The notes under the pieces: model-generated
Databases searched by the model: none
Told to the model about the DNA's origin: nothing
The model's input: the letters and a program-made list of their open reading frames with translations, nothing else
From: an uncultured Caldisericota bacterium
GTDB lineage: Bacteria > Caldisericota > Caldisericia > UBA6126
DNA: 25,044 nucleotides
NCBI GenBank assembly: GCA_964565545.1
Contig: CAZMFK010000002.1
Coordinates: 1 to 25,044, forward strand
Direction: 5' to 3'
Position numbers and translations under genes: made by a program
Shown: positions 13,784 to 15,227 of the stretch, one piece after another
How positions within the stretch are numbered: position 1 is the stretch's first letter
Layout: each line of letters begins with the position of its first letter

Positions 13784-14152
13784 TTATCCGCAAGCCTCAT
13801 TGCAGCAACATTCTTCGTTGCACTCTTCTTCCCAGTCTTCTTCGTCTTCTTCCATATCTTCATAAACTACACAATAACCCGATGCTGTTTGAAAAACCTG
13901 AAAACAATCCTCTTCTTCGCTTGCAATATCATGCAGATACATTGAAAAATCAATATAATCCACCCAATCTGGCGCTTGATCTTCGACCACTTCGTAAACT
14001 GCATCCATATAGTTTTTTAAAGTAGATGTTACTGGATTTTCAATTTGTTCATGAACACTTTCTAAAACTGCATCCATTTCATCAGAAGTTGATTCACGTT
14101 CAAGTTCAGATAAAGCTTCTCTGATATCATCATAACTTGTTAATCTTTTCAT
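13784..14152 (-). CDS. Small, extremely acidic hypothetical protein with Cys-rich C-terminus
   Basis: 122-aa ORF with AAGGAG SD; about 38 D/E versus 5 K/R; 7 Cys, tail ECNEECCCNEACG. Confidence 0.8.
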   Translation of the reverse strand: MKRLTSYDDIREALSELERESTSDEMDAVLESVHEQIENPVTSTLKNYMDAVYEVVEDQAPDWVDYIDFSMYLHDIASEEEDCFQVFQTASGYCVVYEDMEEDEEDWEEECNEECCCNEACG

Positions 14153-14275
14153 ATTAACTCCTTTTAGGTAGGATTTTCTTTAAGTAGTATACCGCAAGAA
14201 TGCTAAAAATGGATTAATTTTTTATTAAATGTTTAGCTTTCTATGAAATTTAACCAAAAAATGTATAAAAAGGTA

Positions 14276-14304
14276 TTGCATTTTTGAAAATCTTGCATGA
14301 TAAT
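14276..14304 (+). promoter_or_regulatory. sigma70-type promoter for the RRM gene
   Basis: TTGCAT (14276-14281), 17-bp spacer, GATAAT (14299-14304). Confidence 0.6.
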
Positions 14305-14396
14305 TTTAATGTTATTAGCGTGCGGCTTGTTGGTGCGAGTTTTTTGGTGTCCAACATGTTCGGCCTAGTGATAATTTTTAGCATGTTGGAGGAAAC

Positions 14397-14693
14397 ATGA
14401 ATATTTATGTTAGCAATTTGTCGTACGACACCACCGAAGAAGAATTAAGAGACCTTTTCAGCCAATACGGCGAAATCACTTCTCTTAATATCATTAAAGA
14501 CAAATTCACCAATCGTTCCCGTGGCTTTGGCTTCGTGGAAATGCCCGATCAAACTCAGGCTGAAGCAGCAATCCAGGCTACCAATGGAAAAGATTTTGGT
14601 GGACGCAATCTTAATGTTGCAGCTGCTCGTCCCCGAACCGAAGGAAACAGTCGCCCCCGCACAGGCGAACGCACCAATCGTAAAGTTTGGTAG
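14397..14693 (+). CDS. Single-RRM RNA-binding protein
   Basis: RNP2 IYVSNL, RNP1 RGFGFVEM, GRNLNVAAARPR, Arg-rich tail; GGAGG SD at 14388-14392. Confidence 0.96.
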   Translation: MNIYVSNLSYDTTEEELRDLFSQYGEITSLNIIKDKFTNRSRGFGFVEMPDQTQAEAAIQATNGKDFGGRNLNVAAARPRTEGNSRPRTGERTNRKVW

Positions 14694-14714
14694 TTTCTGC
14701 TTAACAAAAACCCT

Positions 14715-14750
14715 AAGCCCTGACCAAAAAGTCAGGGCTTTTTTATTATT
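14715..14750 (+). terminator. Rho-independent terminator after the RRM gene
   Basis: Stem AAGCCCTGAC / GTCAGGGCTT (14715-14724 / 14731-14740), 6-nt loop, followed by a T-rich tract. Confidence 0.9.
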
Positions 14751-14786
14751 CTTTATGTTCAAAAAAAACATTTTTAATACCAACTT

Positions 14787-15227
14787 ATGAGTATTTGGAT
14801 GGTTTTACTTCTTGCTATGACTCCTTTAGGAGAGCTACGTGTGTCAATTCCATTTGGAATAGGCTTACATCAGATGCATTGGTTGTTGGTCTTTTTTCTT
14901 TCTGTGATTGGCAATATGATTCCGCCACTTTTGATTATTGGCTTATTTGACCGAGTGCCTTTTTTAAGAAATTGGAAGATTTTTACGCATCATCCACAAA
15001 AAAAGCAACAATGGATTCAAAAGTATGGATGGATAGGCCTGGTTATTTTAGTTGCTATCCCTTTGCCAGGAACAGGAGCATGGACAGGATCACTGTTAGC
15101 ATGGATCCTTCGTTTGCCAAAAATACCTTCTTTGATGATGGTTTTTTTAGGTGTTTGTATTGCAGGTGCTTTAGTAACAATGGCGAGTCTTGGCTTCATT
15201 CATCTTACAAGCGTACCATCACCTTAA
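14787..15227 (+). CDS. Small multi-drug-export-like membrane protein (COG2426 type)
   Basis: MTPLGELRVSIPFG, GNMIP, LVAIPLPGTGAWTG motifs. Confidence 0.85.
   Translation: MSIWMVLLLAMTPLGELRVSIPFGIGLHQMHWLLVFFLSVIGNMIPPLLIIGLFDRVPFLRNWKIFTHHPQKKQQWIQKYGWIGLVILVAIPLPGTGAWTGSLLAWILRLPKIPSLMMVFLGVCIAGALVTMASLGFIHLTSVPSP

Follow-up and report, generated by a model that had tools for sequence, protein, structure and literature searches.

The single-RRM gene of the window, a 25,044-nucleotide stretch of DNA from an uncultured Caldisericota bacterium, is preceded by a 5' leader that, judged by comparison with its relatives, belongs to a conserved and previously undescribed RNA family of uncultured Caldisericia located before RRM genes. 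The comparison indicates that one strand of the leader has two conserved pairings, one with a strand near the 5' end and one with the Shine-Dalgarno (SD) region; that the SD-covering helix (B:C) and two helices of the 5' hairpin (P1 and P2) covary; and that the element is restricted to RRM genes. From the conserved pairings, the predicted energies and the analogy with known cold-shock leaders, we lean towards reading it as a bistable translational control element of RRM genes, in which cold would favour an open form and warmth and/or the RRM protein would favour a locked form.

The features of the leader and its surroundings are collected in Table 1. The original prediction was built on three hexamers, TGTTGG at 14328-14333 and 14384-14389 and CCAACA at 14351-14356, ahead of an SD sequence GGAGG (14388-14392) and an ATG at 14397, and all of these can be read directly from the sequence. 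The same is true of the proposed 11-bp stem, in which UCCAACAUGUU (14350-14360) pairs with AGCAUGUUGGA (14380-14390) with a single G-U (14359/14381) and covers the GGA of the SD. Random reordering of 14311-14379, with the SD segment left intact, produced an 11-bp helix extending into the SD in only 2 of 20,000 shuffles. The upstream half of the scheme needed revision. Its 6-bp helix does exist, but in the predicted fold it is only the tip of a ~19-bp hairpin spanning 14311-14372, and the SD, which had been expected to be free when this helix forms, is predicted to lie in the loop of a small hairpin in which the start codon is paired. Folding of 14311-14420 gave the large 5' hairpin (14311-14372) together with this small hairpin around the SD and AUG, which had no place in the earlier model. 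The fold of the window sequence is not exceptional by itself (z = -1.34), and the support therefore comes from comparison with relatives.

Table 1. Positions of the predicted RNA elements and neighbouring features in the window.
Feature	Position	Strand	Basis or description
Predicted promoter	14276-14304	+	-35 TTGCAT 14276-14281, 17-nt spacer, -10 GATAAT 14299-14304
5' leader RNA, 86 bases, member of the conserved RRM-gene leader family	14311-14396	+	Covariance-model match 14311-14405, E = 7.5e-11
P1 5' strand GUUAUUAG, at predicted +1	14311-14318	+	Pairs with 14365-14372 in the minimum-energy fold
P2 5' strand, imperfect in the window copy	14320-14326	+	Pairs 14320/64, 14321/63, 14324/60, 14325/59 and 14326/58 (minimum-energy fold)
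Element A, UGUUGG: putative anti-anti-SD, 5' strand of P3	14328-14333	+	GUUGG invariant
Apical region of the hairpin	14334-14349	+	Length and sequence vary, without conserved unpaired nucleotides (alignments A2, A3)
Element B, UCCAACAUGUU: putative anti-SD strand, partner of either A or C	14350-14360	+	Sequence and relatives
P1 3' strand CUAGUGAU	14365-14372	+	Minimum-energy fold and relatives
Linker, A/U-rich, length variable	14373-14379	+	Alignments of relatives
Element C, AGCAUGUUGG, with SD GGAGG (14388-14392)	14380-14392	+	Sequence and relatives
Predicted local SD hairpin C:D	14382-14399	+	CAUGUU 14382-14387 / loop GGAGGA / AACAUG 14394-14399, pairs the start codon
Single-RRM RNA-binding protein gene, 98 aa	14397-14693	+	Pfam RRM_1, E = 7.6e-28; ORF listing
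Terminator-like hairpin and T run	14715-14748 (hairpin 14715-14740)	+	Ends the monocistronic unit

The 5' UTR of ~86 nt that had been predicted from the promoter fits the promoter spacing conserved among 33 aligned relatives. In the window, 6 nt separate the -10 GATAAT from G14311, the predicted +1. This promoter is absent from the listing of a simple sigma-70 consensus scan because its -35 matches at only 3 of 6 positions. When the upstream regions of the relatives were aligned on the first conserved base, a TTGAAc -35 and a TGnTAGTAT-type -10 appeared at a fixed distance, followed by 6-8 variable nt and then by a purine +1 aligned with 14311, where sequence conservation starts. The covariance-model match likewise begins at 14311, and the alignment supports a predicted transcription start site within a few nucleotides of this position. 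The upstream gene is divergent, and the RRM unit is therefore monocistronic. The product of this neighbour (13784-14152, - strand), 122 aa long, is very acidic, has a Cys-rich C-terminus and matches no Pfam family. The hairpin at 14715-14740 comprises 10-11 bp, carries a T run on each strand and resembles a terminator when read from either side; it is situated between the RRM gene and the next + strand gene, Sm_multidrug_ex (14787-15227).

Forty-four instances of the leader were collected, every one immediately before a single-RRM gene, half of them (22) genomic and half (22) metagenomic, and 30 of them are distinct. The consensus GUUAUUAG..CUGUU..GUUGG..CUCCARCA..CUAGUGAU..UGYUGGAGG is found upstream of many RRM genes, and all 22 genomic covariance-model matches stop at the ATG of a single-RRM gene. 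The leader is present in the window's genome and in 11 of the 12 other genomes of one Caldisericota family, with 1-3 copies per genome, and the model gave no match in 80 other genomes of the phylum. Among 80 RRM loci that were searched, the model matched only two same-genus Caldisericia loci; the 78 from outside the window's genus gave no match (best E = 0.49). A pattern scan of metagenomes returned 49 matches, of which 22 were true instances by the covariance model and the remaining 27 correspond roughly to the number estimated beforehand for chance; the pattern fixed most helix positions, so that variants there could not appear. All leader sequences come from one bacterial family and the rows are related. 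No Rfam family matched the leader at the gathering threshold (whole window) or under permissive settings, where no family, including thermoregulators and cold-shock leaders, matched it at E <= 10 in a search of 14200-14760 and none reached E <= 1 in six related loci. The only thermometer among the Rfam rows, OppA_thermometer, scored 11.3 bits against a gathering score of 290 bits and lies upstream of the leader (14216-14282). The suggestion of an unannotated cis-element was borne out in part, by a conserved leader without an Rfam match, in which the CCAACA strand has two mutually exclusive partners.

The window's genome carries a second copy of the leader (contig C78:1500-1594; loci L039, L016) before a paralogous RRM gene with 59.6% protein identity, and position 6 of P1 is C-G in this copy, not U-A. 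The metagenomic orthologue P0002 has an over-extended gene call, a 125-aa protein with a spurious 27-aa extension that stems from translated leader sequence and agrees with conservation of A, B, C and the 3' strand of P1.

The pairing that covers the SD, whose conservation had been left as a test, is present in every relative: (C)UCCARCA(U..) and (..A)UGYUGGAG form 8-11 contiguous pairs in 30/30 distinct sequences. Cells of this helix are paired in 94.4% of cases, against 40-48% when the partner is slid. Covariation is seen at one position, pair 47-90, which is AU in 14 sequences, GC in 12 and GU in 4 and has a covariation score above all 500 shuffles. The RRM protein tree traces the G-C state to one origin (support 100/100), adjoining the G-U rows L036 and L038 and then the A-U row L039; L040 is a second, independent G-U row. 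The path from A-U through G-U to G-C is, as read from this tree, the classical stepwise compensatory route, and it is the one full compensatory event in B:C. Within strand B, the CU before CC is also conserved (C in 27/30, U in 30/30); these bases pair only in B:C, and their conservation is therefore explained only by pairing to the SD. In the window's clade, the C-G pair at this end of B:C was lost and three pairs were gained at the other. The conserved 8-11 pairs thus constitute, at the level of sequence, an anti-RBS:RBS helix mutually exclusive with the upstream pairing of the same strand.

The other partner of the anti-SD strand belongs to a hairpin of ~19 bp that begins at the predicted +1 and consists of P1 (GUUAUUAG/CUAGUGAU), an imperfect P2 and P3 (GUUGG/CCAAC). 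Minimum-energy folding recovers it in the window and in most relatives. In P1, formed by nucleotides 1-8 with CUAGUGAU, 7-8 of the 8 positions are paired in 26/30 sequences, and three G-U pairs are conserved. At position 6, which stays paired throughout the 30 distinct sequences, 21 have U-A, 5 have C-G and 4 have U-G. These pairs were counted by an anchored script; the covariance-model realignment had a one-column shift of the P1 3' strand in about half of the rows. P2 in relatives resembles CUGUUA/UAAUAG and has changed on both sides: columns 16-51 of alignment A3 are UA in 16, CG in 6 and UG in 6 rows, and at position 12 U-A is replaced by A-U in L046 and L051. P2 and P3 together are paired in 87.5% of cases, against 27-47% when slid. 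As for P3, the upstream partner that had been predicted for the CCAACA strand is conserved, with GUUGG invariant and paired with CCARC in 30/30 sequences; otherwise P3 has only U-A/U-G changes. A long 5' hairpin with compensatory changes in P1 and P2 would thus sequester the anti-RBS, as in leaders of the csp type. The reading of an intrinsic terminator following P1 was rejected, since the U run at 14375-14379 occurs only in the window's clade, and the base of the stem is weak and A-U/G-U-rich.

The small hairpin C:D has a predicted stability of -5.8 kcal/mol at 37°C in the window. Hairpins of this type, of about -5 kcal/mol at 37°C and holding the SD or the AUG, are predicted in 26/30 sequences, and a similar strength is reached in three different registers in three clades.

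The relative stability of the two forms was estimated by enforcing each of them in a nearest-neighbour model. At 37°C, the open form is favoured by 1-10 kcal/mol in 26/30 sequences and the locked form by 2-3.5 kcal/mol in the other 4/30. In the window copy the open form is more stable by ~6.0 kcal/mol at 37°C, with values of 5-6 in every estimate. In silico, cooling increases the open form's advantage, measured as E(locked) minus E(open), in 27/30 sequences. In the nested model the crossover lies at ~55-65°C for most copies, which would be too high for a sludge/sediment mesophile unless a pseudoknot or a protein contributes. Element B directly abuts the 3' strand of P2, and P1/P2 and B:C could therefore coexist as an H-type pseudoknot. 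A crude estimate from helix stacking plus a generic penalty of 9.6 kcal/mol, in which sterics are not included, places this structure at about -3 to +8 kcal/mol relative to the open form at 37°C, where the two would be nearly isoenergetic, and farther from it at 15°C. The predicted direction, with cold favouring the open form, agrees across the estimates; the modeled midpoint is not reliable.

These features can be combined in the following scheme for a bistable leader. During transcription the long 5'-terminal hairpin P1-P2-P3, which is A-U- and G-U-rich, would fold first. In the open form, the hairpin tip GUUGG:CCAAC would lock away the anti-SD strand, and the SD and AUG would be held by the weak local hairpin (~-5 kcal/mol), which a ribosome could open. 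In the locked form the upper hairpin would be opened, and the anti-SD strand would pair with UGUUGGAG through 8-11 G-C-rich pairs, all of them Watson-Crick. This helix would cover the SD and may form with P1/P2 still paired, producing an H-type pseudoknot. The most likely trigger would be low temperature, leading to the open form, whereas warmth and/or abundant RRM protein on the G/U/A-rich single strands would lead to the locked form. We infer the interconversion of the two forms in the cell, its effect on translation and the nature of the trigger.

The expected outcome of the bistable scheme, cold induction with negative feedback, would be that of cspB and cspC in Staphylococcus aureus. At 22°C their leaders are in the open form, with the anti-RBS sequestered in a long hairpin; at 37°C the anti-RBS pairs with the RBS instead, and the locked form is promoted by CspA (PMC8034633). 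The Caldisericia leader shares with them a 5' hairpin predicted to sequester the anti-RBS in the open form and an exclusive anti-RBS:RBS helix in the locked form, the preference for the open form in the cold, which is here a prediction in silico, and the association with small RNA-chaperone genes that occur as paralogues with paralogous leaders; a chaperone protein that pushes the RNA to the locked form is in our case a proposal. On the other hand, the Caldisericia leader has no sequence or Rfam relationship to cspB/cspC and its gene encodes an RRM rather than a cold-shock domain. It also has an extra SD/AUG hairpin, giving a 1:2 / 2:3 / 3:4 layout, and a possible pseudoknot form, is without a universally conserved U-rich loop motif, and is known from sequence and predicted folds. 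The E. coli cspA thermosensor, in which alternative folds of a long, structured 5' UTR set the accessibility of the SD and AUG, likewise belongs to an RNA-chaperone gene, and its product acts back on the mRNA that encodes it (PMC9947658), as proposed here for the RRM protein; unlike the Caldisericia leader, the cspA switch spans the whole 5' UTR and the coding region.

Candidate regulatory RNAs have also been described upstream of bacterial RRM genes. The Chlorobi-RRM motif (RF01697) is a lineage-specific candidate cis-regulatory RNA of this kind, not marked as a switch in the table of the original report (PMC2864571). It comes from a different phylum, and its covariance model matched neither the window (E <= 10) nor six relatives of the leader (E <= 1). 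In Bacteroides thetaiotaomicron, the single-RRM genes rbpA, rbpB and rbpC have 5' UTRs of 122-155 nt, are induced by cold and are subject to redundant feedback that acts partly via the 5' UTR, and whether these UTRs are thermosensors is stated to be an open question (PMC13370968). In contrast to the Caldisericia leader, no structural model has been published for them, and the covariance model of that leader did not match Bacteroidota RRM loci. By analogy with the csp genes, the Caldisericia leader is a new, putatively cis-regulatory RNA family with a known mechanistic logic, that of csp-type open and locked forms.

A possible, though rather doubtful, alternative to the bistable thermoresponsive leader is pure protein feedback without temperature sensing, exerted on the leader by the RRM protein or by any one of its 2-4 paralogues. 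Putative binding of the nascent G/U/A-rich 5' strand or of GUUGG, before the hairpin closes, would then free the anti-SD strand for pairing with the SD. This would resemble SD sequestration at trpE of Bacillus subtilis, where TRAP, by binding single-stranded RNA upstream, keeps a large 5' structure from forming and lets an SD-blocking hairpin fold; the protein, ligand and gene class are different, and the comparison is an analogy only. The occurrence of the same leader before several paralogues of one genome suits shared feedback, and the open form is the first to fold and is much more stable, so that access to the locked form seems to require a factor. RbpB of Bacteroides binds G/U/A-rich single-stranded RNA with a GUAGGAUA-like motif (10.1101/2021.04.27.441718); the composition of this RNA resembles that of the leader's 5' strand, and CUAGUGAUA in P1 loosely resembles the motif. 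The redundant feedback reported for the rbp 5' UTRs (PMC13370968) points in the same direction. However, no unpaired motif is kept in all copies of the leader, the apical loop and the linker vary, and the helices alone explain all conserved bases.

It is improbable that the leader is instead a static element, in which the 5' hairpin stabilises the mRNA against 5'-end-dependent decay, the SD hairpin tunes translation and B:C is a by-product that is never formed. That P1 starts at the predicted +1, that most copies have the open form as their minimum-energy fold and that B:C has a single compensatory event would all be compatible with such an element. It leaves unexplained, however, the conserved CU of the anti-SD strand, the 8-11 contiguous pairs of B:C in 30/30 sequences, the A-U to G-U to G-C path, and the loss of a C-G pair at one end of B:C with the gain of three pairs at the other in the window's clade.

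Less probable still is a constitutive pseudoknot of P1/P2 and B:C that always represses and is relieved only by an RNA helicase or chaperone, with GUUGG serving as a protein or ribosome contact. The topology, with B abutting the 3' strand of P2, permits coaxial stacking, A-rich linkers are frequent, and the crude energy estimate lies near that of the hairpin form. Against this, GUUGG pairs with CCARC in 30/30 sequences and extends P2, the window's clade has a U-rich linker, and the energies come from a crude model. Despite a helix layout (1:2 / 2:3 / 3:4) that resembles attenuators and a 27-codon GUG...UGA frame in the window leader (14320-14400) whose stop overlaps the ATG (AUGA), we give almost no credence to a metabolite riboswitch, because there is no conserved unpaired pocket or junction (all conserved columns are in helices, and neither the apical loop, 14-19 nt long, nor the linker is constant in sequence or length), or to ribosome-stalling leader-peptide attenuation, because the small frame is not conserved: it has no SD-like word upstream and is not kept among relatives, apical-loop lengths differ by non-multiples of three, an apical-loop indel in P0002 fuses it to the RRM frame, and most copies have stop codons in all frames.

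Single-RRM proteins of bacteria are increasingly recognised as global RNA-binding factors and for a role in cold adaptation, and how the long 5' UTRs of their genes work is explicitly described as an open question (PMC13370968). The leader offers a compact model of ~85 nt with four named strands (A, B, C and D) that is backed by relatives, and it adds an RNA family missing from Rfam in a poorly studied uncultured phylum. If the bistable mechanism is true, thermoswitch/feedback logic is not tied to cold-shock-domain genes and would recur on functionally analogous RNA-chaperone genes. A more speculative and rather unlikely extension, for a lineage whose RRM genes have multiplied to 2-4 per genome and in which one genus yielded no cold-shock-domain gene in 8/8 genomes, is that the leader acts as the shared sensor of an RRM-based cold-shock/feedback circuit, in which RRM proteins flip the 5' hairpin to an SD-blocking H-type pseudoknot. 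Such a circuit, if real, would be the RRM counterpart of the CspA system.

With the query used, RRM genes were found in 15/15 genomes of the order (14 others and the window's) and in 0/26 genomes sampled from other families of the class; genomes of genus g2 have 2-4 RRM genes each. A cold-shock-domain gene is present in the window's genus (g1) and in one of two genomes each of g3 and g4, and none was found in 8/8 g2 genomes, which are 78-94% complete. The csp gene of the window's genome (L182, C4:11450-12050) is preceded by a near-consensus promoter (TTGACA, 16 nt, TATGTT), and its leader, only ~35 nt long, is unrelated to the RRM leader and unlike the long cspA-type leaders.

Other RRM genes of the order have leaders of different kinds. 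The other RRM paralogue of g2 (L006-L009, L014, L015) has a different conserved leader of ~110 nt upstream of the ATG, in which a GCCAUG/CAUGGY helix ends 4-5 nt upstream of AGAGGAG and a small hairpin lies over the AUG; no SD-covering helix is predicted in this second family. The RRM genes L011 and L012 (family f2) and L017 and L018 (genus g3) have further unrelated long leaders. These carry CUUUCC-type words complementary to GGAAAGGAGG at the ribosome-binding site, and from sequence they may represent independent anti-SD arrangements.
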